From contig QPGO01000007.1 in the NCBI GenBank assembly GCA_008632985.1, forward strand, positions 248,001-312,000: a stretch of 64,000 nucleotides of DNA, written 5' to 3'. The notes under the pieces were generated by a model. That model was not told the DNA's origin. It did no database searches and saw only the letters and a program-made list of their open reading frames with translations. Shown one piece after another: positions 2,729 through 64,000 of the stretch. Numbering within the stretch: position 1 is the first letter of the stretch; every line of letters starts with the position of its first letter. The translations under genes and the position numbers were made by a program. The stretch is from Psammoneis japonica (taxonomy: Eukaryota).

Positions 2729-2995
2729 GGTGCATTGGAAATGGAAAGCAAAAAAATCAATCCGTACCGTCCGTCGTCCGTCATACGAATACCGTCCGTC
2801 TGTCAATCCGTCAAAAGTTCATGAGGAGGTCTGTCAATCACGTCGTCTGGCTAATGCTTCACGCGAAAGCGCGAAAGTCAAACGCAACACGCAAACACCG
2901 GCAACACAGCGAAATCAGTAGTAGGAGTAGTAAACAAGGCAGAAGTTGTTGCGGAACAGTGACACGAAGAAGAAATAGAACAACAACAACATGCA

Positions 2996-4458: not shown

Positions 4459-4869
4459 GTTTCCCTGCTATAGTCCCGATGAAACAGGGCTACAAAAACA
4501 CTATGGCGCTCTATAGACATTTGAAATGATTCTCTACCCCGTCCTTTCGTGTCTTGGTTTGCATGTCAAATTGCTCCACATTTCCACAGCGTTCCCTCCT
4601 CTGCCATTTCCTCCAAATTCACCAGCAGCGTTCATCATTTGTTTGCAAGTTGCCGAAGCGAAGATTCCACCAGAGCGAACAGCGCCCAGCCCTTCGGCTT
4701 CCCCTTCCAGAGTTCAGGATGAGGTCCGTCAGTGATGGCACCTCTGCTCTAGCCAGGCCCTCTCCAGCTAGAGAGGCAGCTGCAGCGCGTGCACGAACGA
4801 CAAAACGATGAGGTGGATCACACCGGTGCTTCGGGCGTGACGACGTGCCGCACCTGAGAGAATTTTTAT

Positions 4870-7800
4870 GGGGCGAGAAGCGGTCAATCGCTGCATTTTT
4901 CAGATCACTTGTCCGTTGATTTTCACAGTTGGGGGACCTCTCTGAAAAATTGAAATGTTTCAATCCGATCCACCACGTGAGATTCACACGGCAGAACACA
5001 CCATGACCAACCACCATCAGCCATCAGATGGAGCAAAGCAACCCGTTGAGTGTTGGTGCCGCGTGGCACAGTGGCACACAAGATGACACACAATGCTGCT
5101 GCAAGGAATGGTGAATGGAAAAATGCAGACAAATGCAAAAACACACACCCTTCAAAGACCCCGCACACCAACGTGGGACAATTTTGTGAGAAGCAGAGAG
5201 GGCTCCCTGCTTGAGAAACTTGAGAATGATTTGGTTGCAACATTGTCTTGCTGGAAATGAAGATTGTTTGGCAAGAGAACAGCACAGGCTGAAACTGTGT
5301 CCAGTCGAGCAAACGCTCAATTGATGTGGAGGAACCGCGCGCGGAATCCAAAATGGTTGTTGTGAGTGTTGGCACACCATGGCATCAAAAGAGCCCATCA
5401 TTGCAAGGACAGGAGATTGTCCTGTTGGCTCTTCACGCAGATTCTGTGGAGTGTCATTCATGAGCTGCGGGTGTTTTTCAGCCTTGGCTTTGTGGTTTTG
5501 CATGACCAACAGATCATCTTGATTTGTTTGGAAATGTGCTGCAGTTTCTGCTGGGACATTTGGTCAATGGAAGTTGCCATTCATCTCTGGTGCTTTTTGG
5601 TCTCCTGCAACATCCTCTTTTCTGCTGTGAGCTGGCCCATCCAGCCATCTGCAGTAGGGTTCCTGGTCTTTTTGAATGATTCAAGATGTTTGGAAAGGAC
5701 TCTTTGCTCAGACTTGCAACCAATCCCTTCAGCCAGCCGCAATTCCATTTGGACATCAATGGCCGGCATCTTCCTTGCTTTGTGTGGGCCATCCAGCGGG
5801 GCAGCAACAGCTGTTTGATGCTCACATTCAGAGAGAGGAGGTGGCCCATCTGGATCAAATGAAGCGGCAACAGCTGTGGCAATGTCTTTGGGCACGATGT
5901 CATCAGCTGGCCCATCTGTGGCCAAAACAGCAAAGATGTGAACATCATCTACCACCAGATTGTTGTCTGGGGTCTCTTTGGCTGCACACAATTCCACAGC
6001 AACCTCGCTCAGGTCACTCACCACAATGCAAGAATGAAGACTGCCAGAGTGGACAATTCTCCTGCTGCCATTTCCAGGATCATGTCAAGAACATCTGCCA
6101 CAGGACAAGGAATGACACCAAACTTGCCAACCTCCCAGTCACCAAAACTCTGACTCACCGCCAATCCATTTGTTTCACCCATCACCAGATCTAAGTGCAA
6201 AACACGCATCATGCTGCTGCCACAAGGAATGTGGACGTTGCACTCAGCATGATGGCTGCCACATCCATGCCCACTCATCTGGAGGGTGCGGCTTGTCCTC
6301 TTGACTTTGTTGCACAATGATGGTCTTGCCTGTTTTTTGTGTCAAGCAACAATGAACAACATGCTGTCTCTGGAATTGGCGACATTGTTGTCTTGCTGCC
6401 ATTTTGTAGGATGACCGAAGCAGCAAAGCCAACCGCCTCATCTGCTGGCACTCAATTGATTGTTTGGCCAGTTTTTCAAGTTTGGAAGAGTGCAACTTTG
6501 GAAGATTCACAACAGTGTGCTCTGAAACATGTTTGCTGAGAGTGGCATGTCTGACAAAGCAGGTGATTCATTCTCAAGTGCGTCGCCAACCACCGCCTCC
6601 GAAGCAGGGTCGTCATCAGCTTTTGGGCATTCACGAATGCAAAAGGGTGATGCAACGAAAGCTTGACATCCTGATTGTAATGTCCTTCCACCATTTTGCG
6701 CCCAATCACTGATTTTTTCTTTGAGTCCTGGGCTCTGCCTGCTGGGCCCCACACTTGGGCAAAGGACACGCTGACACGTTGTGCAGTTGTTGCTCCCAAT
6801 GTGAACAAAATCTGCTTTAGATGGCACATGCAATGCGGCCAACAAATCAAGACATTCGCTCAAACAACCACAAATGACCACCAGGTCTTTTCTTGAGCAT
6901 GGCAAAAGTTGTCAGTGATGGACATCAGCCAACCCTGGGGCAACCTGAGTGCAGCAAACACAAGTTGCCGCAAGCTTGATGCAACGCGGTGGTTGAGAAT
7001 GTTTTCTTTTTTTGGTGTCGTAAAAAATCCTTTTTGACTTCTTGAAGCTCGCCAACACCCTTGTTGTCATGGCCATGGTGTTTTTTGCCTGTGGCGCTCC
7101 ACAGCCCACTCGCTAAATTTGTGGCTTGGTGTGGATTGAAACACTTCAATTTTTCAGAGAGGTCCCCCAATTAAAAAAATGATGGACAAGTGATCTGAAA
7201 AATGCAGCACCAAAATCTCACACAACAACATGATGCATCATCAACACATCACACAGCTCTCTTTTGAAAGCAGAGCTGTGCACTTTAACTTGCTGCTTCC
7301 TTCTCCCATCTGTGACATCTGCTTCATTTGTGATGGCAAGCAAAGTGCAGCAGACTGTGGGTTGTGGAGAAAATGCACAATTTAGACTTAACGACCTGAG
7401 TGTTCTTTTCTTTGTTGTTGCTGTCAGGTGTTTCATCATTGGCTTCTCTCAGGATGAATTTTGCCCGGCAATTGTGCATTCCCGGCATCAAACATCTCCT
7501 GGAGTTACAACATGTCAAAGGGATCCAGCAGTGTCACAACTGCAGGTTGATTGAATCTGAGTGGGTTTGGTTGCATGTCTTGTTTGGGTGACACAAAACG
7601 GCTTGCAGTTCTCACAAGCTCGTGTTTCCTGTTGTTGCAGTTTGTGGTTTGGGCAAATCAAAGCAACGCTCTCATGGACTCCATTTTTCATTCATTGCAC
7701 CATTGCCACAGGAAGCATCTTTCAGCCAATGGGTCTGAATTGGGTTGGTTTCAATTGTTGTTTGGGCAAAGCAAAAAGGGGCTCCGCGCTCAGCTCTCAT

Positions 7801-8260
7801 GCGCTTGCACTCTCTGCTTTTTGCGGTTCATGGCTTGGATGGCTGCACATCAAAGAATTGTTGCACTCTCATGGGCTCTGTCATCTGTTTGTTGTGCCAT
7901 TGCCACAGGAAGCATCTGTTGGTTCATTCAACCCAAGTTGCTTGGGTTGCATTGGCTGCAGACAATGGCGTTGTTGCGACAGCCCCCATCCGGACAGCGC
8001 AGGTGTCCCGCACTTTCAAGATTCGTCAACGTGCCATGATGGGAAAAGAGGGAGCCACCAATCGCTGGCATGTGCGCATGCTTTGTGCACTGTCACCCAT
8101 CCATTGTGAACCAGGGACAGTCACACTCACACACAATTGAAGTGGTGAAGAACATCATCTTTTTCACCACAAGCGCAGCTGCAAATTGCAGCAGTCAGGA
8201 ATGTCATCATCTTGTTTCACAACAGGGGTGTCACTCGTTTTGATGCTTCATCAAAGAGAC
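4870..8260. mobile_element. TpA-depleted degenerate repeat domain 1 (probable transposon relics)
   Basis: Only about 13 TA dinucleotides counted in about 3.3 kb; many overlapping Cys/His-rich, Tyr-poor ORFs; internal inverted and direct repeats. Confidence 0.65.
4890..7208. repeat. Imperfect inverted repeat pair of about 77 bp (4890-4966 and 7133-7208) enclosing about 2.2 kb; possible TIRs of a DNA transposon relic
   Basis: gctgcatttttcagatcacttgtcc...ttgggggacctctctgaaaaattgaa.tgtttcaatcc matches the reverse complement of 7133-7208. Confidence 0.75.
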
Positions 8261-23944: not shown

Positions 23945-26204
23945 GTCGTCGATTTAGAGCGAAACTAACAAGTTATCTCAACTTGATGCCAGCCAGACAA
24001 GAACGTTGATATGGGAAAGGATCGTGAAAATGCGATGCGAAGCAAGAAGCAAGCAAAAGAAAAATGTGAGGAGAGATGATGACACGCGTGCGGTCGCGGA
24101 TGACCGGATCTTAGCGGATAACTTACAGACGCACAATTGCCTGATTTTTCATAGAATCCATGAAAAAGTAAAATTCCGAGAAAACGTAATTTTCGGGTGG
24201 ACTGCCATGGCTTTGTTTTCACTGCATCATTTGCCATGGTGGATTTCCATTTTTTTGGCCCCATCTCTTCTGATGAGAGTTTTGGCGACAGCACGACTTG
24301 CCAGAATGTTGCTTTGCTGTCGATCACTTGTGGATTGATGAAGTTGTTCTTTGGCGCAGTGCAACTCAGTCATTTGTTCAGAAGCTTTGTTGGGGAACTG
24401 CCTTTGATGTTTTTTGTCACAAAGACTGATGTGTTGGCCAAGGCTGTGGGCTGGTTGGACACTCTGCTTCATTCCAGACATGGTTGTTGCTTGGTGGGAT
24501 GTCACAGTTGATTTTGTTGTCATGTTTGCAAACTGCAAACCAAGTCTTGGCCATTTCTTCAGTCCTTCTCTTTGTTCTGCTGTTCTGGTCGCCTTTTCTC
24601 TCAGCTGCTCTTTTTTTTTCTTGACAACCATTGCACTGGTCATCAGGAGGGGAGGGTGACACACATCTGAGATGGGGAGCACACTCCCTTGTGTTGGACA
24701 GACTGGCATGGACAGCATGGAGAGATCCGAGACGATCCTCTCTCCCTTTGCTCACTTTCTTTCTTATCCAGTGCGCTCATTGTCGCACCCATCCTGGACA
24801 CCGCCCCAGCGACGAGCCAACTTGACCGCCGTCTCGCCGCCCTCGACACCCGTGTTCATGGGCAAGACACGATCGCATCCAAAGCAATTGGAAATGAATT
24901 CCGTGCAAGGACCGAGGCTGTCGTTGAAAAAGGCACGAGAAGTCAAGGTCAACTTGGGCGCTTGTGTTGTTGACGCTTCGATGATTTTAGGGTGGCAGTG
25001 TCCCTGATTAACAGCGGAGTGCGCCGACAAGAAATCGCAGCAGCAATGGCCATCGACGTCAAAGACCCGAGTGCCTGTTGAAAAAGCAAGCGAATTGGGT
25101 GGCATCATCTGAGACGAATCAGCTCTGCATTTTTCGATCGGAAATTCACACAACGCAACACTCACCCTCTCCTCGGGCAAGAACAACAGGAAGCGGGTGA
25201 CAATTGTGTGCTCCGTACTTGTCCTCTAGATTCATGCATTTTGCGGCAGCCTCTGAGGGAACAGGCTCGGATGCGGCTGCGGTCGAGAGCCATCGAGCGG
25301 AAACCGCACGATGCCCCAGAAAATGGCATGTGGCAGTCAACATGTCGTCGATTTAGAGCGAAACTAACAAGTTGTCTCAACTTGATGCCTGCCAAACAAG
25401 AACGTTGACATGGGAAAGGATCGTGAAAATGCGATGCGAAGCAAGAAGCAAGCAAAAGAAAAATGTGAGGAGAGATGATGACACGCGTGCGGTCGCGGAT
25501 GACCGGATCTCAGCGGATGACTTACAGACGCACAATTGCCTGATTTTTCATAGAATCCATGAAAAAGTAAAATTCCAAGAAAACGTAATTTTCGGGTGGA
25601 CTGCCATGGCTTTGTTTTCACTGCATCATTTGCCATGGTGGATTTCCATTTTTTTGGCCCCATCTCTTCTGATGAGAGTTTTGGTGACAGCACAACTTGC
25701 CAGAATGTTGCTTTGCTGTCGATCACTTGTGGATTGATGAAGTTGTTCTTTGGCGCAGTGCAACTCAGTCATTTGTTCAGAAGCTTTGTTGGGGAACTGC
25801 CTTTGATGTTTTTTGTCACAAAGACTGATGTGTTGGCCAAGGCTGTGGGCTGGTTGGACACTCTGCTTCATTCCAGACATGTGGTTGTTGCTTGGTGGGA
25901 TGTCACAGTTGATTTTGTTGTCATGTTTGCAAACTGCAAACCAAGTCTTGGCCATTTCTTCAGTCCTTCTCTTTGTTCTGCTGTTCTGGTCGCCTTTTCT
26001 CTCAGCTGTTCTTTTTTTTTCTTGACAACCATTGCACTGGTCATCAGGAGGGGAGGGTGACACACATCTGAGATGGGGAGCACACTCCCTTGTGTTGGAC
26101 AGACTGGCATGGACAGCATGGAGAGATCCGAGACGATCCTCTCTCCCTTTGCTCACTTTCTTTCTCATCCAGTGCGCTCATTGTCGCACCCATCCTGGAC
26201 ACCG
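23405..26204. repeat. Head-to-tail tandem duplication: unit 1 23405-24803, unit 2 24804-26204
   Basis: Direct alignment with offset 1399-1401; about 35 substitutions and one 2 bp indel. Confidence 0.97.
24804..25343 (-). pseudogene. OAT: Truncated duplicate of the OAT 5' half, hypermutated at TpA (Tyr to Cys/His)
   Basis: [11 protein letters not shown] becomes HCCCDFLSAHS; NYH becomes [16 protein letters not shown] becomes PCTEFISNCFGCD; homology ends at 24804. Confidence 0.95.
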
Positions 26205-26905: not shown

Positions 26906-26958
26906 TGGCTGGCTGGCTCGCTGGCTGGCTGGCTCGCTGGCTGGCTGGCTTGCTGGCT
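26906..26958 (+). repeat. Imperfect (GGCT)n tetranucleotide microsatellite
   Basis: ggctggctggctcgctggctggctggctcgctggctggctggcttgctggct. Confidence 0.9.
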
Positions 26959-28290
26959 AGATGATGATGGGATGAAAAGCACACCCACCTGAACCAAGTC
27001 AAAGGGGAACAACAGGAATCATTCAAAAATGTCACGTGGGTCACAGTTGATGTTTCACATGTGGAAAAACACAAAATCGTGCAGAAATGCACACAATGTC
27101 ATGTGAGAGAATGATCAGAGCTAACGACTTTTCGGGAACTGAATTGAAATGCCATCTGTTCAATGGTGTTGGCCTTCACCATGTGAATCAACAAAACACC
27201 GTCGATCAGATGGCATTTCAATTGATTTCCCGAGAAGTTGACATTTGCACACGGACAGATGGACAGACTGACAATGATTGTTCTTAGTGCTCTCCTGCAC
27301 AATTTCTACGTGATGACTCTCAGGACCCGAGTGATTCCTGTTGTTGCCACAATCACTTGTTTTTTGTTCCCCTCCATCCCCTGAGACCTTTCAGACGTTC
27401 GTTCCCGCCAAATTGCCCTCATTTCCCGGGTGTTCCCCAAAAGGGCAAGGCAATTTCCCCTTGCCCTGGCCATTTCCTTGGGGAACCCCCAATCCGGCAA
27501 AACCAAACCAAGGTGCTGTGCATGGCAGTGCAACAAACAATTCACCCCTTGGTTTCAGGCACGTGTCTTTGTGACAGCCAAAATGTGAAACTTCCATGCT
27601 TGACGTTCGTTTGGGGCTAAATGTTTTTTGTTCTTGTTGCGGGAATGGGGGGTGGGGACACATGCTGTGTTGGCAACCTGCGGCGTGTCTTCACAACATG
27701 ATCACCTGATGGTTTGACACTTGGCGGATGTGATGCATTGAGCAAATCAAGGAATTGGTGTCAGGCTGTGCATTGGAATCCATGGACACAAAGGGGGTGA
27801 CAAAATGGAGCATTTCCTGCATGTTCTTATTTTCAACACACATGGACAGTCCAGCGGCAACATGCTGCTCACATCAATGAAGTCCGCATGGATTGCACAG
27901 GTTACACAAAGATGTGAACAAATGAGAGTGACACCAGAACATGCGGGAAAACTTTCATGAAGAGATCGAAGGTTTACGGCAACTCGCGGAGGAGCATCTG
28001 ATTTTCTACTGTGCATGTGATGCTGCACTCACGCTGATGGCTTGCAGTGGGGCAAGTGCCAAAGTCATTATTCGTAGATTGTCTTTGTCCATATAACATG
28101 TAGATGTTAGTCTTCGTGCCAGCTTGGGACTTGCGCCTCAGATCATCTATTCCCGGTCCGTTGGAGAGCTTGTATCCGTGCATGGAAAACAAATCCGAAT
28201 CGAAGTGCGCGTTAAAAAAACAATAGGTTACCTATTACGAGATGTCTGAAACTTGACAATGAAGACTGATTCTTGGTCGCACAGATCGGC

Positions 28291-40487: not shown

Positions 40488-41043
40488 CGTTTCAAATCAA
40501 AAACACACAGTTTCGTCGTCGTCGTTGCCAATAAGAACAACAATCGTTGTATGAAATCTGTTGTGATTGAAATCTTTGTTGTGTTCGTGTTCGTGTTGAC
40601 TCTTTTTTTTGTTGTTGGAGCTGTGATCTTTCGTCTGTCCGTCGAAGAAAGATCTTTTTGGATTTTCTCCAAAATTTTTCGAAAGTTTGACCTTTGACTT
40701 TCGATCTTTTCTTTCTTGTCATCATTGCTCGCAACACCACAAAACAGCAAAACAACACGGAAAAATAAAATAGTCTCTAGTCTAAAAAGTGATACATCAA
40801 GTAGAAAGGCGATCCAGAGCCGCGAGATACCGGTAGCGAGAAACAGTCAGTCATCAAGGACGAAAGTGGCAAGGGGACAGTTCCACGATGTCATCCCAAG
40901 GTAGAACCACAATCTTGTCGCAAACTCGCAGAGAGAGAGAGTAGAACTCGCATTCATGGAGTGTACATGGATGCAGACATAATGAAGGAAGATGTCGAGG
41001 ATTAGCGGTTGTGAATCATGAACATGAACAAGCCGCAAAGTCA

Positions 41044-41806: not shown

Positions 41807-42689
41807 GGTGCTCTTACGGAAACTACAGCACTTCTAATCAGTGAAACACCGCACTGATTGTGGATCTGATCTCTGACGCCTGTGGCTTTTTCTCGGCAGA
41901 TATAATAATTGGGTTGCGTTATCGTCCCGCTCTATAGCACCAATACGATGTTGAACTTGAAGCAGAACGACGAAGTGATGTTGTGATGAGCTATTGCGAT
42001 GCGTTGTTGCCACGATTGAAACCTTGCGCCAAAGCGCGCGAACAGTGGCGGGCGTGTCGAAAGCATGTATGAGGCTACGACTAGCATAAACGTACCTGTT
42101 ATACCGGTCAGACATTTTGTATTGGATTTTATGTACCCCTTTATTTAACGATAACGGTTATTGCCAAAACAAATAGCAGGTTTTACATGTGTATCATATA
42201 CAAATGTCTCACAAAAGTCCATACCTTTCAACTATTTAAATGTTTTTGTAGATGTTACACATTCAACCGTCGATACTCCGTTTGTCAACTCCGTCTTTGA
42301 ATAATACTTCATATATGCTCGTATGTTTGATTAAATTGCGTGGCGGGCGTGGGCATGACCTTCATTTGAATTCGTACTTAGAAAGAGTCATTCTATGTAT
42401 TGCCTCAGCATTTTCTTCGTTAAGTGCGTAGAACAGTACAAATCTTACGCAAAAAGTCATATGCAGTCATTCAACATTCTTGTATATTCGTCATTAATAA
42501 ATCATATCAATGTTTTTTATATGTCAATGATTATATCATATTGCATTTTATGCTAGTCGAAGCCCCATACCGGTATGCGCATGCACGCCATGCAATGCAC
42601 GCAGGAAGAGCGCAACGCATGCACGTCTTCGGCCTGCCCTCAGCCCGATCGTCAATCGTCACGAGTGTGCTGGACTTTGCGTTCGTTAC

Positions 42690-44700
42690 GAACGTGAAAT
42701 CCAAGACTCTGCTTGCATCCATCAAGCAGGGCAAGGCAGCACATGTGCAGCATGGGTTCAAGGTCACAGAGACACATGTGGGCAGGCAGTTTGAGCCTCT
42801 TTCTTGGGTGGGGTGCCAGCCATCGGAAGCACGCACTCTTGACCTGGGTGCTGCCTCACACCTGAAAGGGGCAATTTGGGCCTGGCCAAATCGAACAATG
42901 CAGGTCCATCAATGCAACCATTTTTTCATTCTTCCTGAACATCCTTTCCCATCCATGGTTGAATCTGTTGGGTGGTGTCAATTTGCAACTTGTTGCTGAG
43001 TGCGAAGCTCAACATCACGCCCGGGAGCCACAGTCCGAGGTTTTTGATGTTGCCATCATCTTTGTCCATCTGCAGCTGATTGCAGTTGTCTTCTGGTGTT
43101 CCTTCTTTGCTGCGCATGCCCTCCCAGAGTGTCTTTTGACCAAACTTCATCACACTTGTCTGCACACCCTTGCTCTCAATCTCTGCTCATGACTGCACTT
43201 TCCCAACTCTTGGAGCCTCTCCAGCCCTTGCTTGTTCCAACTGTGATTGCTTTTTGCTTGCTTTCCTTTCCCCATGCTGTGCTTTGCATTGAGAGCAAGC
43301 CCTTTCAATCTGTTCTCCTTCAGCTCTTCCATTGTTTTGCCACACATGTGGGCCCACTTGCTCCCGTTGTTCTCCAACACAGGCAGACACAATGCCTTGT
43401 TGCCCGCAGATGCCAACTTGTTCAAGCAATGTCTCAATTTGAGCCAATGATTCCATGTTGTTTTCCCAACCACAGTTGGCAGGAAGTGGCACAGGTGAAA
43501 TGGCTTTGGGCCTTTGTGTTGCTCTCCTCCTCTCCAGCATTTCCTCCAGAGATGGTGTCTTGTTGTTTTGTCGAAATGGCAGCCAGTCCATCCAAAGGAT
43601 TGTCAACATCAACATTGGAAACATGCAGCAAAGAAAAAACAACAGCCAGGAGAGACTTTGCTTTTTTTCTTTGTGTTTGTGTTGTCTGGGTTGTTGTTGT
43701 CAAACAAAAGTTTTCTGGGAGAAAACCAAGGAGCATCTTTGACTTGCTTGACACAGTCAGTCAGAAAGTCTGACAAATGCAGAAAGCACAATGGGATTGT
43801 CCGCTGGGTGCACATGACTGATGAGCACACCTGTGAAAGTGCAGCTGCAGTTCTTGCACATGCCCAGTGACTGATGATTGGTGCCAGTGGAGGAAGAAGA
43901 AGTGGTGGTGGTGGCTGCAACAGACGAGTCTTTGTCGTGTGTGCTCAAAACATGCAACAACAAATCAGCAGGCATTTTGCCTGCTTTCTTTGACAGCACC
44001 TAAAAATCCAATCAATCAATGACAGGGTGGATGTTGTTTGCAATGCAAAGGCTGTCATTGTGATTGTTTTGCTTGGGAGCAACTTGTGGGCTGCCCCTCT
44101 CACCTTGAGAGTGCTGATGAGCCAGACGTGAACGAACGGCGCTGCACACACAAGGAAACAAGAGGCCACGCTGGTGCAATGTTGAGCCTTGGCATCAGCG
44201 CTTGGACCAGTGGCTTGTCCAAACAGCAAAAGCTCAGTGCAAGGAGCTCCACAAAGAGTTGGAGCTGGTGACAGCCACAAGTGCGCACACAATGCCGACA
44301 CACAGATGTTGTGGACAGGAAGGTTCATGGAGAGCCAGGGGCACAAGAAAGCAAAGAACAACATTTTGTTTCAGGGCAAGAAGCTCAATGTGAGGAGATC
44401 CACAGAGTTGGAGCTGGTGTTGGTCATGTGCATCACCGGCTGCGCTGCAGCACACACAGCTCTGTTGTGGATGCAGGAAGGCTCGCGGAGAGTCGCCAGG
44501 GGCACAAGAAAGCAAAGAAATGGAGAAGAATGGTTGGCAGATAATTTCAAGCTCCAAGTGCTGGCAGACCACTCTGCCAAGGTGCTTCAAGGCCTGCTGT
44601 TCAGCCACATGGTTTGGGCCTCTAGAGAGAGAGTAGAAACCAGATCATGGGCAGGTGTGGCTCTGTGGAAAATGCACGAGGGATCTTTTTCGCCATTGCA
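42690..44700. mobile_element. TpA-depleted degenerate repeat domain 3
   Basis: TA nearly absent over about 2 kb; minus-strand relic ORF with LPVLENN...W...SWNKQGLERLQEL; diverged internal tandem duplication. Confidence 0.55.
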
Positions 44701-45897: not shown

Positions 45898-47070
45898 ACG
45901 GACCTTTTCGTCACACGAGCTTTGGCGGGGAGCCGAGGACCTTGCAGGAGCATTTGGCGAAAGCTCAAGGGAATAAGAAAGATCAAGAAAGTAGTTGAGC
46001 ACTTGCATCGAATCGTGAGCTTTGAAATCCACTCAGAGAGTGCGAAACAGTAACTGGAGCGGTGCCGTTTGGTCGACTCTGCCTCCGGACGATTTGCCCG
46101 TAGATATTGTACTATTTTGTATCCTACTGTAAGTATCTTCAGATGGTAGAGCTGACCGGCTAGAAAAAACGAATGGGACGAGCAATAGAAAAGGAAAAGG
46201 AAGAACTATATCTTCAGAGGCTATTCCCCTTGCACTCTAGATAGAGATAGCATTTCATTCACTTTTCACTCGGTACTTTTCTCCGCTTCGTTCAAAGTGG
46301 TAAAACTGAAATTCTCATAGATCGTTGGCGTCTTCCGCGACGCAGTATTGGCAGACAAATAGATCTGTCTTGCTTGCGTGAGCAAGACAGGAACACCCCA
46401 ACAACACGAGTGTGATTCTTTATACTGTTTGGTCTACAGCAGTCGTCGTGGAGTCTACCAAATCATGCCAACCCTCTTTGTAATCGAGCAAAACAACACG
46501 GGAAATCTGATAGTCTCTAGTCTTTTAAAGAGTGATACAGCAAGTAGGAAGGTGATCCAGCCTCGAGGTAGGGAGAAACAGCTGATGCACAGCAAGAACG
46601 AAAGCACAAGAGAGGACAGTTCCAACACGTTACCCCAAAGAAGAGCCACAATCTTGTCGCAAACTCGCAACACTTCACTGTGTGTGGATCTGATCTCTGG
46701 CGCGTTTTTGCTTTTCTCTGCAGATTCAATAATCGGGTTGTTTTGTCGTCCCGCTCTCTAGCTAGAGAGCACCGATGCGAATGTTGAAAGACGATGTGAT
46801 TTGATGATTTGCGGATGCCACGATCAAAATGAGGTGCGAAAACCGCAGAGCGAGGGAACTGCACCAAAAGCGTGCGAAAAAGTGGCGCATAAGGAAGCCA
46901 AAAAAACCAAAAAAAAGGCGCGAAACGTCTGTCTGCGTGCCCGATGGATATGATACGATACGCAATGTTGGATGGAGTTGGACGTTTGGATACGATGATG
47001 ATGTGTTGATGCTATTGTTGCCGCTCCGTTTGTTCAACACTCGAGTGCCAACGCCTTGGTATTAATTAGA

Positions 47071-53531: not shown

Positions 53532-54383
53532 AATGCAGTCATTAGGATTACTCAGTAAAATCTTATTATTAATCTAGCTGAAGCATTACTGTACTGTAGC
53601 ACTCACAATCTCAGTAAGAACTTGTATACAGTACGAAGACAACTACCTCAAAAAGAATTTATCTTCTAGTTTCGCTCGGTGCAGCGCTTCGTTATATCTT
53701 AGACCTAGAAACAGGCTGACGAAACAGTTGAAATTAAATTGCGATGGGTGACGGATAGAGCGACAGAGAGAGGGAGGAAGGCGGCGATTTCTTGAGTTGG
53801 ACATGCACAAATACGACGCCAGAAAACTGTAGAATAGAACTAGATCGAGAGTTCTAACTGCCAATAAATGCCACGCTTCGCCCTGATGCCCTCTACTGTA
53901 TGCTCTCTCTAGAGAGAGTAGCTAGCTCGCATCGAGAATGACCTTGGAAGAAGTGGTAAGTGGTGTACAGCAGAATGACAATAGTGAGTAGTTTTGTGTG
54001 CTTCAAAGACGCACGAAAAAAAGTAAGCAAGTAAGTTCAGCGTAAAGGAACCGATAAAAGGACATGTGAATAGAAGTAAGAGAATGCACAGTGCCCTCAC
54101 ATCAAACATACATAGCATCCGTGAACAGATCAGACAACGCACTAGTACAGTACCGACAACACTGCTGTACACTGTAAGGATTCCAATGATTGATTTTATA
54201 AAGACTTTGTGAAGTGGCCCAGAGCTGCATGATCCACTGTTCAAAGGTCTCGTCCATCATTTCTGTGCCACCTCTTTCTCTTCAACAGCTGCATTTCTCC
54301 CATCCATGACATTGCCAGTGAACTTCTGTCTCTTGATCTGTTTGTCTCTGTTGGGGCAAACAAAGACCGCCTTGTGAGGTCTC

Positions 54384-54834
54384 TCACATGTTGTGATGTC
54401 GTCGGGGTCCTTCTTGGTTGGAACTAAAGGATCTTGATGCGCAAATGTGTTCTTCTTCCGGAAAAAGGCTTGACACAGCTGTTGCGGTCACGTTTCTTAT
54501 GTCTTCTAACCACTGTAATCCCTTTGCTGCTGTTCCACTGTTCAAGGGCAGCCGCTTTCCCCCAATCATGCCATGTCGCTGCCAATGCGAAGAGTGCTTT
54601 GCCCAAGATGTCTTTTGCTCCTTGCCTTCTTCAAGCTCCAAAGACATGAAAAAATCACAAACCGCAACTCCCATCTTCGATTTGTCAACAAAAAGCAAGT
54701 CACCCGAATCTTTGCGAAACATGCACTGTGTGCACTCGTCTTGAAACGTCTCAGGGCTCTCCCCATCGAGTTCAACCTCATGCGGATTGTGCACCAACTT
54801 CCCAATGACTGGTTGAAGATCCTTGTTCTCACCC
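54384..54834 (-). pseudogene. 3' part of the DUF3990-like gene split by the Copia element
   Basis: GENKDLQPVIGKLVHN continues in frame from NREDRIYKG on the far side of the element. Confidence 0.7.
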
Positions 54835-55298
54835 AGTCGTGGTTCGTCTGTCCACCAACCCAGATTCTCTGTTGTGTCTGTACTTCCGTCAGTCGGAATT
54901 CTCATTGAAATTCTTTTCGCGCCACGTCAATCAAGCCGAATGCTTTGGGGATCACAGGCGGTGCTTTGGAGATCACAGGCTTCGCACAGATGTTGGACCA
55001 ACCACAGATTGGTTCAGCAGCACTTGGATGATTGTTGTGAATGTGGTTGAACCTGAAGTTTGCACTGGTCTCTAGCACAAACCTGCGGATCAACCTCTGT
55101 TTGGGTGCATTCAGCAGATTCAGTCTAGGTGGCTCACAATTTGGTCACTGGCACTTTTGTGAAAGACCAAATGCTCGTCACCACTTGTTGGTGGATTCCA
55201 TCTGCTTGTGTTCTGTCTGAGGCATCGATCTGGAGTGGACATCCAGTTGACACGTTGGGAAGGCACTCGGAGCTTGCGCGGACACGCGAGCTTCGACT
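54835..55298 (+). repeat. 5' LTR (464 bp), termini AGTCG...CGACT
   Basis: Direct repeat of 62128-62599. Confidence 0.93.
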
Positions 55299-55634
55299 GG
55301 TCAGTTCGCCCAATTGGGGCAACTTAACACGTTCTACGCTTCTGGTTGGGGACGCCCAAACCAGGGCAACCCTGTCAACAGCTCTGATGCCGTCAGTGCT
55401 CCTCATCAACTGTGCTCCACGCTCTTGATGTCAAGTGCTGCGACTGACTCCGTCAGCTGAGTGGCTGGTTCTGCCAGAAGGTTTGTTGTTGATTTTGCAC
55501 GTGCACCATCTCAGGTCCTGCTCCACCCCGTGGCCCTCCTGAGACCCAAGAGAGTTCTCCGAGCTTGCACTCTTTGATTGAGAACGTCCCAGACGATTGG
55601 TCCGACTCGACAGCTTCAAGCGCGCTGTCGGACA

Positions 55635-58600
55635 TGGCTGACGACCCCGAAGTGTTCGAGGATCAGCCTCCTGAGGATCAACCTCCACCGGGGGATGATC
55701 CACCACCTCAGGACCCTGACGACCCAGACGACGAGCCTGTTCCGCCCTTGGAACATCGCCCGGACGATTCGGATGACAACTCGGATGATGATGATGACAA
55801 GCCCACTGCAGGCTCTGGCATGTCGGAAGACGAGCGTCGCACTGTTCAGGCCATGGCTGCCATGGCAGCCATGGCGATGCCGAAGACGAAAGTCCACAAA
55901 CCCAAGGCTCCTAAGATGGGGGGGTTGTCTCCATTGGTTCTGCTGAGAAAGTTGCTTAGACCGGTGGGAAACCCAAGGCTGACTGGCCCAGATTGGAAAC
56001 TCCCAACTCCAGTCCAACGTCACCAAACCAGCGTCACTCCCACCACGTTTCTTCCACCCAGAAGAGCAAGGCCCACCGCGTTGCCAGACTTTCAACCAAG
56101 TTTGACAAGAAGGGAGATCTTGCAACCTTTGAGAAGAACGTGATGAAGCATCTCAAGGACTGCGGTTTGGATGCGGCAACTTACCCACAGGACCCCGAGG
56201 ACTCAACTTCTGTGACGTCTTGTGTTGAAGGACATCCTCGGTGTTCCAAATCGAGTGTCACCCGTCTTGTCGCACCTCAACTCGCCAAGTGTGACTCCTG
56301 CGATTCATCCAATGACAGGGATGCTGCTGAGTTTCTCAAGAACTCCTTGGAGGCTGGCCCAGTCGCACAGCTGGATCTGGAGACGGAAGAGTCGGATTGC
56401 TTTCCGAAAGTCTGGATGGCTCTCGTCGTGATCCTCCAGAGCACGTCCATCGAACGCTTCAAGCAGCTCGAAAAGCAGCTGGAGGAACTCAAGCCCTCCC
56501 ATTTCGCCGGTCAGGATCTCTCCCAGCTCCTGTCCAAGTTCAAGACTGCGGCCCAAGAGTTAGATGTTGCGGGTCAGCACGACCACAAGCTGACGCTCAC
56601 CTTGGTCAACGCTTGCCTGGAAGCTGGCGGGGATGGCGAAAATGGTCAGCAGTTCAAGCACGCCCTTCGCACTGTGAAAGAGAATTTGAGCGAAGCACTT
56701 GTTGAGATAGCGTGCAAGTCTAAGACGGACGCGAAACGATGCCTTGCGTCCAAGAACCTCACCTGCTCTCAAGTCATTGGGAAGATCCTGGACCGCTGCC
56801 GCTTGTTCAAGAACAACACGCAGTGGGATCCCATCAAGCACGCGACAGACTCCAAAGCCGCTCCTGGAGCCTTTGGAAACCCAGTGCTTGATCCCTCAGC
56901 CACTTGTCAAACGGTTGGAGTTCCACTCACTCAGGCCCAGTTCAATGCTCTCTTCCAGCAGACGGCTGCTCCCCGCAAGAAGACTCCGGAAAACTCTCCA
57001 TGCAACAACTGCGGGAAGCTCGGACACTGGGCACGTGACTGTCCCAACAAGTCTGGTGAGGGTGCTGGCAACAACCAAGGCGCTCAAACCCTGGGCACAA
57101 CGGTGGAGGACAAGGAGGAAGGGGCAGGAACCGCTCCGGTGGCAACGGGAGTCAAGGTGGCAATGGAGGCAACGGCAATGGTGGCGTCGCGCGCAACTGG
57201 AAGAAGGTCGTGCCTCGTCCCGGACAACCTGAGTCCAAGGTTGCTCAGGGCAAGACTTGGCACTGGTGTGCCAAGTGCCGTCGTTGGTCGACCACTCACG
57301 GTGCTGCCAAGCATGGGCAGAAGGATGAGTCACCTCCTGCACCAACTCAGCAGGCCAACACCCTCTTCCTGGATCCTGGAGCGTGGCACGCGGAATTCTA
57401 CTTTGAGTTGGGATTCAAGGACATGCTGCTTGGACTGTTTCAGGTTGTGCTCACCTTGATCCACCCTTTTGCATCTCCGCTGCTCTATGCCACCTTGGGA
57501 TGTTGGCATTCTCAGCTTCTGGCCAACTGGCAGATTGCTGGAGTCAACGCCATGATCTGGTTCATGACGGTTGTTGCGTCGCACGTCTCGTCACATTGGC
57601 ATCTCTATCCTTTGCCCGCCATCTGGTTCCTTCTGCTTCTAGCGGCTGTCTTCTTGCCGTCTAAGTTTGAGCGTGATGCTCGTGCCAAAGCCCTGCATGC
57701 TCCTCCTCCACCCCCTCCTCCCCGCTGGGCCACACGCCAAGGAACCAAGTTCTCTGAGCGCCTCGAACGTTGGGGGCATCGTCGCCTGTGATGGGAGCTT
57801 CAGCCTCGCTGCGGACGCCACCGTGCTCCACCCAGGCATCCCTCTCTCGTCCAACGTGCCCGTGGGGCGCCCAACATCAAGCAGCGGCAGCGCAATCAGT
57901 TGTGTGACCTCAGTGAAGAGGTCAAGGCCTTCGAGCGGTCACTCACCTTCACGCGTGCACGTCCTCTCCTCTGTCGAGAGGGAGAAGCCGGTCGTCCCAA
58001 GGGCACCAGACATCACAAGAGCACCACTCTAAAAAAGGGGTCCCGACGTTCATCATCGAGGTTGTCGGACGCATTGCCCTGTTGGTTCAAATGCTGTGCA
58101 CGGTTTGACGCGCTCCCAGCTTGACGCCATCTGCTCCCCAGCAGCCAAGGCTTGTCTTGCCAATGCTGACGTCCCGTCACCTCTACTTTCTGTTGCCAGT
58201 GCTCTCAAAGCGGCGTTCACGAGTCCCAAGGAGACAAAGGAAGTGGTCAAAGAGCACACCTTCCCGGTCATTTGGGACTCAGGAGCAAGCGCATCGGTCT
58301 CACCTTGCAAGGACGACTTCGTCGGGCCTCTCGAGAAACCACCTGTCGCCACCCGGCTCCAAGGTGTCGCAAAGGGCCTCCATGTGGCAGGCATTGGACA
58401 CGTTGCTTGGTCTTTTGTTGATGTTGCTGGGGTGCTTCGGACCCTGAAGGTTCCGGCCTGCTGTGTTCCCAAGTCCAAGGCTCATCTCTTGAGCACGACC
58501 AGTCTCTTGCAGACGCACTCGGATGAGTCCATCGAACTGCCATCGGACCACACCATCCTCAGTGGATCCCAGAATTACAAACAAGGACACAGGCAAGGTG

Positions 58601-61600
58601 TTGAAGTGTTGATTGAACCTTCAACTAACCCACCGGTTGGGTGGGCCTGCGCGAATCAAGCAAGTCAACAAATTTGTGAGGAGTTTCATTTGACGTTGTC
58701 GACGATTGTGGAACACAGTCACAACATCTCACCTGCTGAAAAGGAGCTGCTACATTGGCACTTTCGTCTCAGGCATCTGAGCTTTCAAAAGGTGCAATTT
58801 TTGATGCATGCAGGAGTTCCACCCCACTCCGAGGGCACCTGTCCTTTGCATGAACACGCTTGTCGTATCGATCGTCTGCCCCTTTGTGCCGCATGCCAAC
58901 ATGGAAAACAAAAACGCCGTCCTGGCCCCAGAAAGACTTCTCGTGTCGTCAAAGATCAAGCTGGTGCCTTGAAGAAGGACCAACCATTCCCCGGTCAACG
59001 AGTTTCGGTTGATCATTTTGTTTGCTCCACTCGTGGTCGTCTGAAACATGCTTTTGGAAAGGAGAGCATGTGACATCAGTGTTCGGGCAGAGCAATCTTT
59101 GTGGATCATGCATCCGGTCACATCAACGTTCAACATCGAACTCACCTTAACACCAATGAAACTTTGACGGCCAAGAACGCGTTTGAGGCCCATTGTCGCG
59201 ATTGTGGCATTGTTCCCCAAGAACATCTGAGCGACAATGGAAAGGCGTTCACGTCGGCCAATTTCAGGGTTCACTTGGAATCTTTTGCTCAAGTTTCAAA
59301 GCATGCCGGTGTGGGAGCTCACCATCACAATGGGGTTTGTGAACAAGCAATGCACACTGCGATGTCGATTGCGAGAAGTGTGATGTTGCACGCGGCGATC
59401 CATTGGCCTGATGTTGCGGACGCTGCTCTTTGGCCTTTGGCTGTGGACCACGCTGTTGTGCTTTGCAACGCGATGCCAGACCCATCTGCGGGTCTAAGTC
59501 CACAGGATGTGTTCACCCAGACGCGCAATCCTCACTCTCGGTTCCAGGATTGTCATGTTTGGGGGTGCCCTGTTTACGTTCTTGACAAAGCCCTCGCCGA
59601 TGGAAAGAAACTGCCAAAGTGGAAACCCCGCGCGAGTCGGCATGTCCATGTGGGACTCAGCCCCGAGCATGCCTCGTCAGTCCCGCCAGTCTTGAGTCTT
59701 GAAACGGGAGCCATCACTCCACAATTCCATGTCGTTTTTGATGATTGGTTTGCGACGGTTCCTGCTGATGCTAGCTTGTCACCTGCCATGGGGTCTCCGG
59801 AATGGACGTCTCTTTTCAGAGACAGTGTGTGTCAACACACCATGGATGATGAAGAGCAGGCTGATGTCGACATCCGTCAAGAACACCCAGAATGTGAGCG
59901 CCGATCCGAGGAAATCCGCGAAACCGTCACCCGCCGGTCGCCTCCCAAACCCTTGCAGGTCCCTCCTCCAGCTGCTCAGGCACCAGTGTCTTCTCCCGAG
60001 GCCCCCTCGAGTCCCATTGTGGAACCCCCGGTCCCTGAGGTGGAGTCTGTGCCTCCATTAGAGTCTCCTGCTGAACCCGTGGCTTCAGACTCGCCTCAGA
60101 GGGAGAGAGCACCCGCTGCCAACTCAAATGCCCCACCAAGTCCTCAGAGGGAGCCTCCTGCCCCTCGAAGTCTTTCTTTGGATCTCGGTCAAGAGAGGGA
60201 GTCACCACCTGTGGCTCCACCCAGCGCACAACGCCCCTCTCCAACCCCAGTTCATCGCTCAACCCGGACTCGCGCTGCGCCCCAGCGGTTTGGACATGAT
60301 GGATCTCAGGGACACGGACACTTGTCTCACTTCGTTGATTTCCATTGTGCACACAAGTTTGACCGCAGTTGCAACACATCCATGACTGCTCCTGCCGCAC
60401 ACAAGGCGTTGGCACGCAAAGTCAAGGATCCAGGTGCGCCATCCTGGGACGAGGCCATGCGCTCTTCCGATCGCAACAAGTGGTTAAAAGTGGCTGAGAT
60501 CGAGGAACGTGGGTCAAGGTGCCTGCATCCGATGCTCAAACCAAGATCCTTCCCGGCACTTGGGTGTTTCATCGCAAGCAATCACCTTCAGGCGAGATCA
60601 AGAAATGCAAGGCTCGCTGCTGTTGTCGCGGCAAATCTGCAGGAAGGAAGTCTGTTTGACACTCATGCACCGGTTGTAGCCTGGAGTGCGGTTCAAGCAT
60701 TTTTGGCATTGAGTCTCATTCTTGGATGGCATGCGGCATCCGCCGATTTCCAGTCCGCATTCGTTCAAGCAGTGCTTCCTGCGGAAGAACCAGTTTGGGC
60801 TCATCTTCCACGAGGTTTCAGCTCGATGAAAGGACCCAAGACTTGTCTTGAGCTCGTCAAGAGTCTCTGTGGACTCTCTTCGGCTCCAAAGTTGTGGCAC
60901 GAACATTGTCTGCAAGCCTTCTTGGACTTGGGTTTCATCCAAAGCGAGTGCGACCAATGTCTCCTGCTTTGCCATGATTGCACGGTCTGCCTGCATGCCA
61001 ACGATTGCGGGATCAGTGCAGCGCAGGAGTCCACCATTGATCAGTTGACATTTCAGCTGCGCGAGAAAGGATTTGAATTGACAAAGGAGGGCAGTTTTGC
61101 CGAGTTCTTGGGTGTCAAGTTCGAAAGGAGAGACGACGGCACTGTCAAGTTGACGCAGAAAGGGTTGATTGACAAGATCCTGTCAGCTGCCGGCTTGGTT
61201 GACAGCAAACCAAACTTGCTCCCTGCGGCGTCCCAAGCCCTTGGCACTGATGCGGACGGAGATCCCATGCAGGAGGACTGGAGCTGTCCCTCCGTCATTG
61301 GAATGCTCCTGTGCTTGTCCACCAATGCCCGTCCTGACATTTCCCTCGCCGTCAGTCAGGTTGCATGCTTCAATTCCAACCCGAACAGTCGCGCGCCACT
61401 GCCGTCAAGACTCTGGTCTGCTGCCTGAAAAGGACGCGTGATCAGGGGATGCTGCTGTCTCCAACCAGTCGTTTGGATCTTGATTTATGGGTTGATGCCG
61501 ATTTTGCTGGTCTCTGTTGCTGCAAAGTGGACTCTGATCCGAATTCTGTGAGGTCATGCACCGGATGCATCACAACTCTCAGTGGATGTCCTTTGGTGTG

Positions 61601-61980
61601 GAAATCGCAGCTCCAGTCGGCTGTTTCCTGCTCCACCCTTGAAGCCGAGTGTCAAGCCGCCTCCTGTGCTCTTTGGACTCTCCCACCTTGAAGAACCTGC
61701 TTCTTGAGATCGTCTTCACCTCAGACATCTCCCAAGATCTCAGGACTTCGGTTCGTGCGCGCATGTTCGAAGACAATCAAGGCGCTCACTGCCTGGCTGC
61801 CAACCACCGCATCACCAATCGCACCAAGCATTTTCTCGTCAAGTGGCATTGGTTCTGGTTGCATTGTGATGAGTTTAATGCGATTAAGGTGGAATCGGCG
61901 GAGCAACTCGCCGATCATCTTACCAAGCCTTTGACTCGAGAGCTCTTCCAGAACAACTGGTTGAAGGTCCAAGGGTGGTG
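55635..61980 (+). pseudogene. Degenerate gag-pol polyprotein with frameshifts and Tyr-to-Cys/His substitutions
   Basis: CNNCGKLGHWARDC; protease IWDSGAS; WHFRLRH...CAAC; integrase VSVDH, SDNG, NGVCE; VWGCPVYVLD; RT KSLCGL and CLHAND; RNase H VDADFAG, FEDNQGA, QLADHLTK. Confidence 0.93.
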
Positions 61981-62118
61981 GCACTTTGGAAGCATCGCTT
62001 CCTTTGTTTGTTGCATGTTGTGGCTCGGTCAAGATGCAGGAGCTTTGCTCTGAACTTGCACCAATTGTGTGAGCTTTCTCGTTTGCGATTTTCTTGTTGG
62101 TTGCTGGAATCTGTGAAT

Positions 62119-62127
62119 GAGAGGGAG
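62119..62127 (+). other. Polypurine tract
   Basis: gagagggag immediately 5' of the 3' LTR. Confidence 0.8.
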
Positions 62128-62599
62128 AGTCGTGGTTCATCTGTCCACCGACCCAGATTCTCTGTTGTGTCTGTGCTTCCGTCAGTCGGAATTCTTGTTG
62201 AAATTCTTTTTGCGCCACGTCGACTTGATTCTCAAGCCGAATGCTTTGGGGATCACAGGTGGTGCTTTGGAGATCACAGGCTTTGCACAGATGTTGGACC
62301 AACCATAGATTGGTTCAGCAGCATTTGGATGATTGTTGTGAATGTGGTTGACCCTGAAGTTTGTGCCAGTCTCCAGTGCAAACCTGCGGATCAACCTCTG
62401 TTTGGGTGCATTCAGCAGATTCAGTCTAAACAGCTTGCAATTTGGTCATTGGCACTTTTGTGAAAGACCAAATGCTCGTTGCTGCTCGTCAGTAGATTCC
62501 ATCTGCTTGTGTTCTGTCTGAGGTGTCGATCTGGAGTGGACATCCAGTCGACACGTTAGGAAGGCACTCGGAGCTTGCGCGGACACGCGAGCTTCGACT
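62128..62599 (+). repeat. 3' LTR (472 bp), termini AGTCG...CGACT
   Basis: Direct repeat of 54835-55298 with an 8 bp indel and many transitions. Confidence 0.93.
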
Positions 62600-63758
62600 C
62601 ACCTTTGTAAATGCGATCTTCTCGATTGTTCAGACAAGCAGTCATCCATTCCTCCCATTGGTCCCCCTTAACATGAAGCTTCGACAGACTTTCGAAATCC
62701 TCTTCCTGTGCATCGAAGTGCATGAGAGAAGCAGATTGTCGTCCAACGCCATTTTCAAGGGCGCTCAAATTAGCGAAGCGGATGCATGTCCTTGTCGTGT
62801 CGGAACAATGGAGTCCACCCCCAAAGTCGCCAATGGGTTGGAATCGATTCGCAATGATCCCGAACTCGATGAGATTCTTCATCGATGCAGTGTCTGCCCC
62901 ATGAAACAAGCGTCGGTGGCCTGGGGGGACAGGTCGTGTGGCGAGCCATCGTTCAACATGCGTGAGAAGCTCTTGGACGTAGTTTGGTTCATTGTGAGTG
63001 AATTCTTTTTGGGCATCCTCAAAGGATGTGGCGATGCATTGAAGCGAGACGTCATGAAAGTTGCTCATGGGCTTCTCATTGCTTGCTTCATCGTCGTCTT
63101 CTGCTGCTGCAACACAAGCACGGCGGCGTCCTGCATTGATCACAATCCATTTCTTCGCAACATTGGCAATGACAATGCAACCATCAAAGCACTCCTTGTG
63201 ATCATCTGCCAGCCAAAAGAGATCAAGAGTTGCCCAGTTTCTCCTGAAGCCCCATGCAAGAAGACACTCAGATGGCATCAGTTCAGGTTTCAAGCTTGAC
63301 AACGAAATCCGTTTCAATGCCAACTTCGACAAGGCAATTTGGGAAAACATTTTGCTGCCACGACACAGAATCTTGCATCCGCCAAATGCTGTTTCCAATT
63401 TTCCTGGTCCATTGACAACAAAATTTGATGTGCCAGATGAAAAGGAGTTGCTGAGAGGGGAAAGGACGGGACGCGAAGGGGAAGGGACTGAAGGGACTGA
63501 TGCAACAGTCATGTTGTTCGGGGTTGAGACCATGGTGCAGACGCACACGCACGTGTGGCGGCCACTCTCCATCGTGAGTCCATGCGTCGACCGCACACTC
63601 TCGGAGATGTCAGGCGGACGATGCACCAGGGTCGTATGCAGAAGATTTGTCACGCTGCTCTTGCGGATTTGGCTCAACGCTCTACAGAGCTTTCTACACA
63701 ACACATGCCTGAAAATGTGCCGATCTGACGATGATCGATTTTGCCGTCCCATCAACAC
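62600..63758 (-). pseudogene. 5' part of a DUF3990-like (ADP-ribosyltransferase fold) gene, TpA-depleted and split by the Copia element; true start uncertain
   Basis: RLFHGAD...GI...DFGGGLHCS, resembling the LYHG(T/S)...DFGxGFYxT pattern. Confidence 0.6.
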
Positions 63759-64000
63759 CCAATGTCATGCACGGTCCAGTGCTCATTCGGATGCACCCTG
63801 TTGAGCGGAGAAAATTCGCAAATGTTTGATTGATTTGTGTCCCCGAGACTGAACGAGTGCAAAATCTTCACTTTCTCTCTCAGTGCTGACATGCATCGTT
63901 GATCATTGTCATGTGTTCAGCTCCGTTGCACCTTGCAAGTGCACATGTTTCTTTTCAATGTTTCTTTGCAATGGTGTTGTCTTTCTTGCAACTGAACTGT

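Follow-up and report, generated by a model that had tools for sequence, protein, structure and literature searches.

How does an integrated retrotransposon come to hold almost no TpA, and was TpA lost before or after insertion, in RNA or in DNA? The question is raised by a Ty1/copia long terminal repeat (LTR) retrotransposon at positions 54835–62599 of the 64,000-nucleotide stretch of the nuclear genome of the diatom Psammoneis japonica analysed here (contig QPGO01000007.1, positions 248,001 to 312,000; hereafter the window). It contains only 37 TpA dinucleotides in 7765 nucleotides (nt), an observed/expected ratio (o/e) of 0.09 against 0.48 in the rest of the window, with CpA and TpG at 1.4 and CpG at 0.71. 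A preliminary description had proposed that the two LTRs lost TpA independently, on opposite strands, after integration and at the DNA level, and four lines of evidence now agree with it: the polarity of coding changes, a tandem duplicate of a host gene fragment, contigs from other copies of the family, and a model of the loss rates.

We consider it very likely that this is a dead element in a silenced, TpA-poor domain, in which a mutator active after integration turns TpA into CpA or TpG and has hit each LTR independently. Such a mutator would act on integrated genomic DNA through A:T>G:C transitions; TpA being self-complementary, either strand could be hit, so that each LTR would independently lose about 86% of its TpA and opposite-strand losses of the same TpA would leave CA in one LTR and TG in the other, while a slower decay of CpG to TpG or CpA would run in parallel. 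What the copies compared below show directly is the signature itself, the polarity of the change, and that the process reaches DNA with no RNA stage in its history.

Differences between the two LTRs

The two LTRs (Table 1) are 90.25% identical over 472 aligned columns, as established by repeat search, BLAST and pairwise alignment. Of the 46 columns that differ, 8 are gaps belonging to a single 8-bp indel and one, at 55051, is the sole transversion (A/C); the remaining 37 are transitions which, written with the 5' LTR base first, divide into 13 C>T, 10 A>G, 8 G>A and 6 T>C. They are scattered along the LTR without forming tracts, and five of the differences lie outside any pyrimidine–purine (YpR) context.

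TA survives on one side only in both directions: in the 5' LTR at 54882 (gtActt/gtGctt) and 55073 (tcTag/tcCag), and in the 3' LTR at 55005/62306 (ccaCag/ccaTag), 55193/62494 (gtGga/gtAga) and 55257/62558 (gttGgg/gttAgg). These five sites had all been quoted in the preliminary description, as had four doublets with CA in one LTR and TG in the other, each of which is present among a total of ten (54903–4, 55063–4, 55066–7, 55076–7, 55130–1, 55135–6, 55179–80, 55182–3, 55189–90 and 55223–4). When 38 transitions were placed at random on the LTR, 20,000 trials gave a mean of 0.59 such doublets and a maximum of 6. The ten are resolved to CA and TG in ratios of 7:3 and 3:7 in the two LTRs. At eight further sites, CG in one LTR is matched by TG or CA in the other; these are ordinary CpG decay.

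Two other places in the alignment deserve mention. Eight base pairs at 62223–62231 of the 3' LTR, also present in family contigs, where CTTG/CTCG variation occurs inside the stretch, are missing from the 5' LTR at 54929–54930; the indel is a deletion in the 5' LTR. At 55128–55131 the 5' LTR reads GGTG where the 3' LTR reads AACA (62429–62432), giving two A/G differences at ApA beside a CA/TG doublet.

Rates of loss and the apparent age of the insertion

The site classes were compared with a model in which each copy loses a site with probability p and the loss resolves at random to CA or TG, so that unchanged, single and doublet sites are expected as (1−p)^2, 2p(1−p) and p^2/2. The TpA classes (one TA/TA, five single, ten doublets) fit at p = 0.86 (chi-squared 0.77), whereas the corresponding CpG classes (16, 8 and 10) give no fit (chi-squared 16.6). 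Taken alone, the single CpG sites set p at 0.20, from which 0.5 doublets are expected against the ten seen (Poisson P = 1.7e-10). From this model we conclude that most of the ten doublets would have been TpA and at most about one CpG. The ancestral state, which the preliminary description had left as either TA or CG, can thus be narrowed by the rates to TA for most doublets, with parallel CpG decay accounting for the eight single-site differences. By our own arithmetic, the TpA hazard exceeds that of CpG about 9-fold in the LTRs and about 14-fold in the tandem duplicate described below, two independent data sets that agree.

The two LTRs of an insertion share a single template. The pair now differs at 15 TpA-derived sites, with losses in both copies, which together with the mutated genomic duplicate makes editing of RNA or error by the reverse transcriptase unlikely. 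The target-site duplication, still matching at four of five bases, argues that the pair is one insertion rather than a recombinant, formed without exchange between elements. Its single mismatch (CACCC/CACCT) is suggestive in its own right: had the target been CACCT, insertion would have created a junction TpA from its T and the first A of the LTR, and the C that now ends the left duplication makes CpA with that A. A C>T change in the right copy is the other possible source of the mismatch.

Divergence between the LTRs is 14.6% in YpR contexts (33/226) and 2.1% elsewhere (5/238), or 8.2% overall. The raw figure therefore inflates the age of the insertion about fourfold, bearing out the earlier expectation that LTR dating would overestimate it, and the inflation would be larger still if the GG/AA pair at 55128–9 is a by-product of the same process.

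Polarity of change in the pol frame

The element carries a gag-like frame and a pol frame in which the integrase lies upstream of the RVT_2 reverse transcriptase, the order of Ty1/copia elements. The pre-integrase part (GAG-pre-integrase domain, PF13976) occupies the frame 58033–59073; after an in-frame TGA at 59071, a 784-residue stretch in the same frame continues with the integrase core (PF00665, residues 9–80), an SH3-like domain and RVT_2 (PF07727, residues 513–718). The gag–pol region is interrupted by stops at 57457, 57553, 57565, 57640, 58030 and 59071, and the Y/F-V-D-D motif of the reverse transcriptase in homologs has become HAND. For both reasons the retrotransposon is dead. Its closest pol relatives are 41–48% identical (BLASTP), the best named ones being from the diatoms Cylindrotheca closterium and Fragilaria crotonensis (42–45%). 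Elsewhere the window has a high gene density and long frames without interruption, and its fumarase finds named matches in diatoms only (72–77% identity), Bigelowiella not being among them. Against the Protein Atlas the fumarase matched bacterial clusters only, and a search with SGT1 yielded no named relative.

The 784-residue frame was aligned with 35 of the 120 homologs listed, a column being taken as conserved at 70% or more. Tyrosine makes up 0.13% of the frame and 2.58% of the 35 homologs, and histidine, cysteine and alanine are raised. Of 364 conserved columns 269 are kept overall, as against one of eight conserved tyrosines; the other seven have become histidine (three, CAY), cysteine (three, TGY) and alanine (one). 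All seven replacements that stem from A>G at a first codon position follow a T (Thr>Ala five times, Ile>Val and Met>Val once each), so that a TpA at the codon border has become TpG, and leucine has been replaced by proline encoded as CCA (twice) and by serine encoded as TCA (once). CpG decay has left its own trace in four replacements of arginine by glutamine, histidine or cysteine and in Asp>Asn after C. Among the 120 listed homologs none is as depleted in tyrosine as the window copy (lowest 0.89%, median 2.56%), and hence none of them could be recognised as a hypermutated relative. Selection for UpA avoidance was ruled out as a cause of the depletion, since catalytic and conserved residues have been destroyed, as in the change from YVDD to HAND.

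Two observations concern the pol alignment itself. At residues ~481–521 (60514–60636), which include the Tyr>Ala case, nearly all conserved columns are non-conservatively changed; judged from the alignment, the frame is probably shifted locally here by a pair of frameshifts rather than altered by point changes. The homolog with the lowest tyrosine content (P0069, 0.89%) has raised histidine and cysteine and may represent partial hypermutation of a copy in a different organism.

A duplicated host gene fragment

The same signature is found in DNA unrelated to retrotransposition. Two adjacent 1.4-kb segments, 23405–24803 (copy 1) and 24804–26204 (copy 2), are 97.4% identical; copy 1 belongs to a gene of the Aminotran_3 family, similar to ornithine aminotransferase (Pfam E 6.7e-71), and copy 2 holds a fragment of the same gene. 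At the 34 TpA of copy 1, copy 2 has 10 TA, 12 CA, 9 TG, and one each of CG, AA and TC, so that 22 of 24 losses are transitions, and CA and TG outcomes are roughly equal (12:9). No site has TA in copy 2 alone. Between the copies 64 of 70 CpG are kept, the others having become TG (three) or CA (three), and only 4 of 1189 sites outside TpA and CpG differ. Per site, the loss is thus 71% for TpA, 8.6% for CpG and 0.34% for the remainder, which sets loss at TpA two orders of magnitude above the background rate. Over 141 aligned residues, all six tyrosines are changed in copy 2 (five to cysteine, one to histidine).

The duplicated segment is genomic DNA that includes the promoter region of the gene and adjoining non-genic sequence, and hence is no retro-copy; the process therefore acts on DNA. 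The copy that is hypermutated, now a pseudogene fragment devoid of tyrosine, is the distal one, with older TpA-poor DNA on both sides, and among the TpA kept by copy 1, 21 of 34 lie in non-coding upstream sequence. Within the tandem duplicate an A>G difference at ApA is seen at 23620, adjoining a mutated TpA.

TpA-poor domains

Low TpA is found in four patches of the window (~4600–8200, 24200–28000, 42600–44600 and 54200–64000), in which, in 1-kb steps, the TpA o/e is 0.00–0.14 and that of CpA and TpG 1.25–1.81; the genic DNA outside them has TpA o/e values of 0.33–0.82. The borders are sharp, within ~200 bp, and the GC content of the element is 51–60% as against 42–52% in the rest of the window. 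Around the element the domain begins 635 bp upstream of the 5' LTR. The family is multi-copy in run X1 (summed contig depth 1983–3177 in the LTR, 306–1588 in internal sequence and 66.5 in the flank), whereas the left flank at 54500–54802, already TpA-poor, has single-copy depth in the same run. It follows that the low-TpA state is a property of the domain and not of the retroelement alone. Within such delimited domains the process is accompanied by CpG decay, and an adjacent active gene is spared together with its 21 non-coding upstream TpA. Since only one of the duplicate copies is hit and a single-copy flank is affected, targeting would be by the silenced chromatin state of the domain and not by sequence homology.

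Other copies of the family

Contigs from run X1 (584) were placed on 54500–57500 at 80% likeness, and the sequence context is known for the 40 best-supported of 270 variable places. Transitions account for 237 of the 270. Among the 40, the family majority is CG where the element has TG or CA at 17 places and TA where the element has TG or CA at three (55193, 55257 and 55895); ten places belong to five internal CA/TG doublets and ten are of other kinds. Family contigs carry A at 55193 (share 0.85) and 55257 (share 0.80), so that TA is the older state at these sites and was lost from the 5' LTR; by the same token the majority CG at 55186 and 55248 indicates that the 5' LTR lost CpG there. At two of the five internal doublets (56360/1 and 56598/9) a TA-bearing contig exists, and at two only the opposite resolution does.

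The preliminary description had suggested scoring the doublets against family copies. At both LTR sites that can be tested in this way TA proves older, although the ten LTR doublets themselves are absent from the best-supported 40 of 270. Because most copies have lost each TpA, a plain majority consensus would be misleading here.

A comparable mutator in Bigelowiella natans

The only close precedent that full-text literature searches returned, and they returned no report of such TpA loss in diatoms, is a 2026 preprint on mutation-accumulation lines of the chlorarachniophyte Bigelowiella natans (Mettrop et al., bioRxiv 10.64898/2026.01.13.699255). There, two integrated viral regions gathered 231 mutations, of which 230 are A>G or T>C, all of those at TpA and at a rate ~1000-fold above background, and TpA-poor coding sequences are enriched in reverse-transcriptase and DDE domains (bioRxiv 10.64898/2026.01.13.699255). 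The two systems have in common that changes are almost exclusively A>G or T>C, that they fall on TpA and leave TpG or CpA within delimited foreign or selfish DNA, that the rate is orders of magnitude higher than background, and that the long-term trace is low TpA with high CpA and TpG. They differ in host (Rhizaria there, a stramenopile here) and in state: the process is observed live there, in inserts of giant viruses and virophages in which many TpA remain (Rho 0.45), whereas here it is reconstructed from fossil copies near saturation (o/e 0.00–0.12) and accompanied by CpG decay. The targets also differ, being in the diatom an LTR retrotransposon family, a duplicated host-gene fragment and unannotated old patches. 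The diatom domains are a second, phylogenetically distant instance of this very recently described targeted mutator.

As to chemistry, we tentatively favour, at somewhat less than an even chance, enzymatic deamination of adenine in 5'-TpA, with inosine read as G, as the authors of the B. natans preprint also propose (bioRxiv 10.64898/2026.01.13.699255). An adenosine deaminase of the ADAR/ADAT kind acting on DNA is the leading candidate; oxidised thymine mispairing with G is an alternative from which the strand symmetry cannot separate it. A wider proposal, which we regard as rather unlikely, is that the mutator is an old genome defence shared by Rhizaria and stramenopiles, perhaps more widely: a 5'-T-specific DNA adenine deaminase recruited to silenced chromatin, the mirror of fungal repeat-induced point mutation (RIP), which together with cytosine methylation would drive both self-complementary YpR dinucleotides of selfish DNA to CpA and TpG.

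The same signature in a second distant algal lineage would be more than the quirk of one species and points to a widespread eukaryotic A:T>G:C defence against selfish DNA. In practical terms, ages from LTR divergence are inflated, consensus building is biased, since at fast sites the base carried by most copies is the derived one, and TpA-free DNA invites false gene calls and tyrosine-free ‘proteins’ in databases. A natural TpA-specific DNA adenine deaminase, if that is what the enzyme is, would be of interest for base editing.

Alternative explanations

Several points weigh against loss of TpA from each copy independently and with strict specificity. The ten LTR doublets are polarised by rates, under the assumption of equal rates within a site class, and not by outgroup copies. 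At 54983 the family majority is TG where the 5' LTR has CG, and for the internal doublet at 57422/3, one of five, a contig with CG exists, pointing to a CG origin. At two internal doublets almost all other copies have the opposite resolution, from which it follows that some losses were inherited by sub-lineages and are not independent in each copy. The few A>G differences at ApA near mutated TpA (55128–9 and 23620) indicate that specificity is not absolute; the mutator may be locally processive or may have a second, weaker preference. Finally, over the TpA-poor flank an X1 k-mer contig of depth 66.5 agrees with the window at 365 of 365 bases, an agreement that is not independent proof of base accuracy, X1 being possibly the source data of the assembly.

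A mutator of DNA that is real yet triggered by sequence duplication, as in fungal RIP, rather than by the chromatin state of a domain, is the alternative that survives best, although we judge it unlikely. The clearest targets are indeed a multi-copy family, with an LTR depth of ~2000–3200 against 66.5 in the flank, and a tandem duplicate, and like RIP of ascomycetes the process introduces transitions at the DNA level, disables repeated or selfish sequences and makes copies appear more diverged. RIP, however, mutates both copies of a duplication, whereas here copy 1 keeps 34 of 34 TpA, 21 of them non-coding and upstream, and only the copy enclosed on both sides by older TpA-poor DNA is mutated; a flank of single-copy depth is TpA-poor as well, and the main target in B. 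natans is single-copy (bioRxiv 10.64898/2026.01.13.699255). RIP proper was rejected as a candidate, being C>T at CpA, which creates TpA and AT-rich DNA: the direction here is TA>CA/TG, destroying TpA (o/e 0.09) as GC rises, and copy 1 is untouched.

ADAR-like hyperediting of sense and antisense RNA before integration, or reverse-transcriptase error, with the LTRs made to differ later by gene conversion or recombination with edited copies, is very improbable. ADAR and APOBEC editing in animals likewise yields deaminase-type transitions clustered in retroelements, and the 5' U preference typical of ADAR, noted in the B. natans preprint (bioRxiv 10.64898/2026.01.13.699255), matches TpA; a multi-copy family would also supply donors for conversion, and some doublet states are common to most other copies. 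Yet such editing precedes integration and acts on one strand of RNA or reverse-transcription intermediates, whereas the changes here follow integration, fall on both strands and reach DNA that is no retro-copy, including the region upstream of a gene, non-genic DNA and the single-copy flank. The retained target-site duplication and the spread of LTR differences without tracts stand against exchange between elements. Editing of RNA or cDNA before integration is disfavoured on three grounds, the 15 TpA-derived differences between the LTRs, the mutated genomic duplicate and its CA:TG ratio. The preliminary description's case against ADAR-like RNA editing thus stands with regard to the RNA route but not to the enzyme, for the leading candidate named above is of that kind, acting on DNA.

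Decay of methylated CpG alone, with the doublets derived from ancestral CG and the TA states produced by a second transition, is already close to refuted, and we leave it scarcely any probability. Methyl-CpG deamination in silenced transposons does operate in the same domains and gives the same TpG and CpA products, as attested by the eight CG-versus-TG/CA sites of the LTR pair, by a CpG o/e of 0.71 in the element and 0.19–0.39 in older patches, and by the CG-bearing contig at 57422/3; at about a ninth to a fourteenth of the per-site rate of TpA loss, roughly tenfold slower in both data sets, it cannot give the excess of doublets, and TA is moreover shown to be older by the family majority at 55193 and 55257, by the replacement of tyrosine by histidine and cysteine, and by the duplicate, in which 24 of 34 TpA were lost from one side only.

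An artefact of assembly, in which modified TpA and CpG bases of silenced DNA are misread by the long-read base-caller as TA>TG/CA and CG>TG/CA, would suit the two kinds of apparent change, which are those that modification of A and of C tends to produce, and reads from opposite strands could leave one copy with CA and another with TG. It is just as hard to sustain, because the X1 contig agrees with the window throughout the TpA-poor flank, 1-kb stretches with 0 to 2 TpA would need near-complete misreading, the indels, stops and non-YpR differences are real decay, and the process in B. natans is documented by short reads (bioRxiv 10.64898/2026.01.13.699255).

Features of the window and minor observations

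Table 1. Retroelement, duplication and TpA-poor features, in positions of the window
Feature	Position	Strand	Evidence or remark
5' LTR, 464 nt, termini AGTCG...CGACT	54835..55298	+	Repeat search and BLAST; contigs of other family copies diverge at 54835 and 55297/55298
3' LTR, 472 nt, with 8 bp absent from the 5' LTR	62128..62599	+	Pairwise alignment; the extra bases also occur in family contigs
Left target-site duplication, CACCC	54830..54834		4/5 bases match CACCT at 62600–62604
Right target-site duplication, CACCT	62600..62604		4/5 bases match the left CACCC
gag-like open frame with CCHC zinc knuckle	55960..57459	+	Pfam PF00098, E 6.4e-08
pol frame: pre-integrase, integrase core, RVT_2 reverse transcriptase	58033..61428	+	Pfam domains
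Purine run GAGAGGGAG, at the position of a polypurine tract	62119..62127	+	Directly 5' of the 3' LTR; putative function
TpA-poor, CpA/TpG-rich domain around the element	54200..64000		Composition; extends past the element on both sides, to the window end
Duplication copy 1: 5' part and upstream region of the Aminotran_3 gene, then an older TpA-poor segment	23405..24803		34 TpA kept
Duplication copy 2: pseudogene copy	24804..26204		24/34 TpA lost
TpA- and CpG-poor patch	4600..8200		TpA o/e 0.03–0.10, CpG o/e 0.30–0.39
TpA- and CpG-poor patch	42600..44600		0 TpA in 43001–44000

Four segments (4600–8200, 26200–28000, 42600–44600 and 62600–64000) are almost free of TpA, with CpG o/e values of 0.19–0.79, and show no recognisable transposon domain in frames of at least 100 residues. 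Pfam searches found no significant family in 16 frames of the first patch, where PF06813 gave one match below the cut-off, and none in 12 frames of the patch at 42600–44600; across 56 open frames of the TpA-poor patches they returned no transposon domain, only three matches below the cut-off and the Aminotran_3 fragment of copy 2. Such patches probably represent selfish DNA that is old and has decayed completely. Two degenerate patterns taken from the 3' end of the LTR had 0 matches each in scans of metagenome contigs.

Both strands of 54500–63000 together hold 52 open frames of at least 80 residues in 8.5 kb. Long open frames are a consequence of TpA loss, which removes TAA and TAG and creates neither.

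Within the first patch, 4890–4966 and 7133–7208 form 77-nt inverted repeats, 89.6% identical and 2.2 kb apart, that may once have bounded a DNA transposon, now decayed, as its terminal inverted repeats. This pair, and the repeats at 40746–40930 and 41845–41938 with 46487–46762, were discarded as pairs for polarising changes, being too short or too diverged. The depths of the X1 contigs over 54500–57500 fall into two groups, at ~30 and ~65, as would be expected if a diploid contributed heterozygous and homozygous k-mers.

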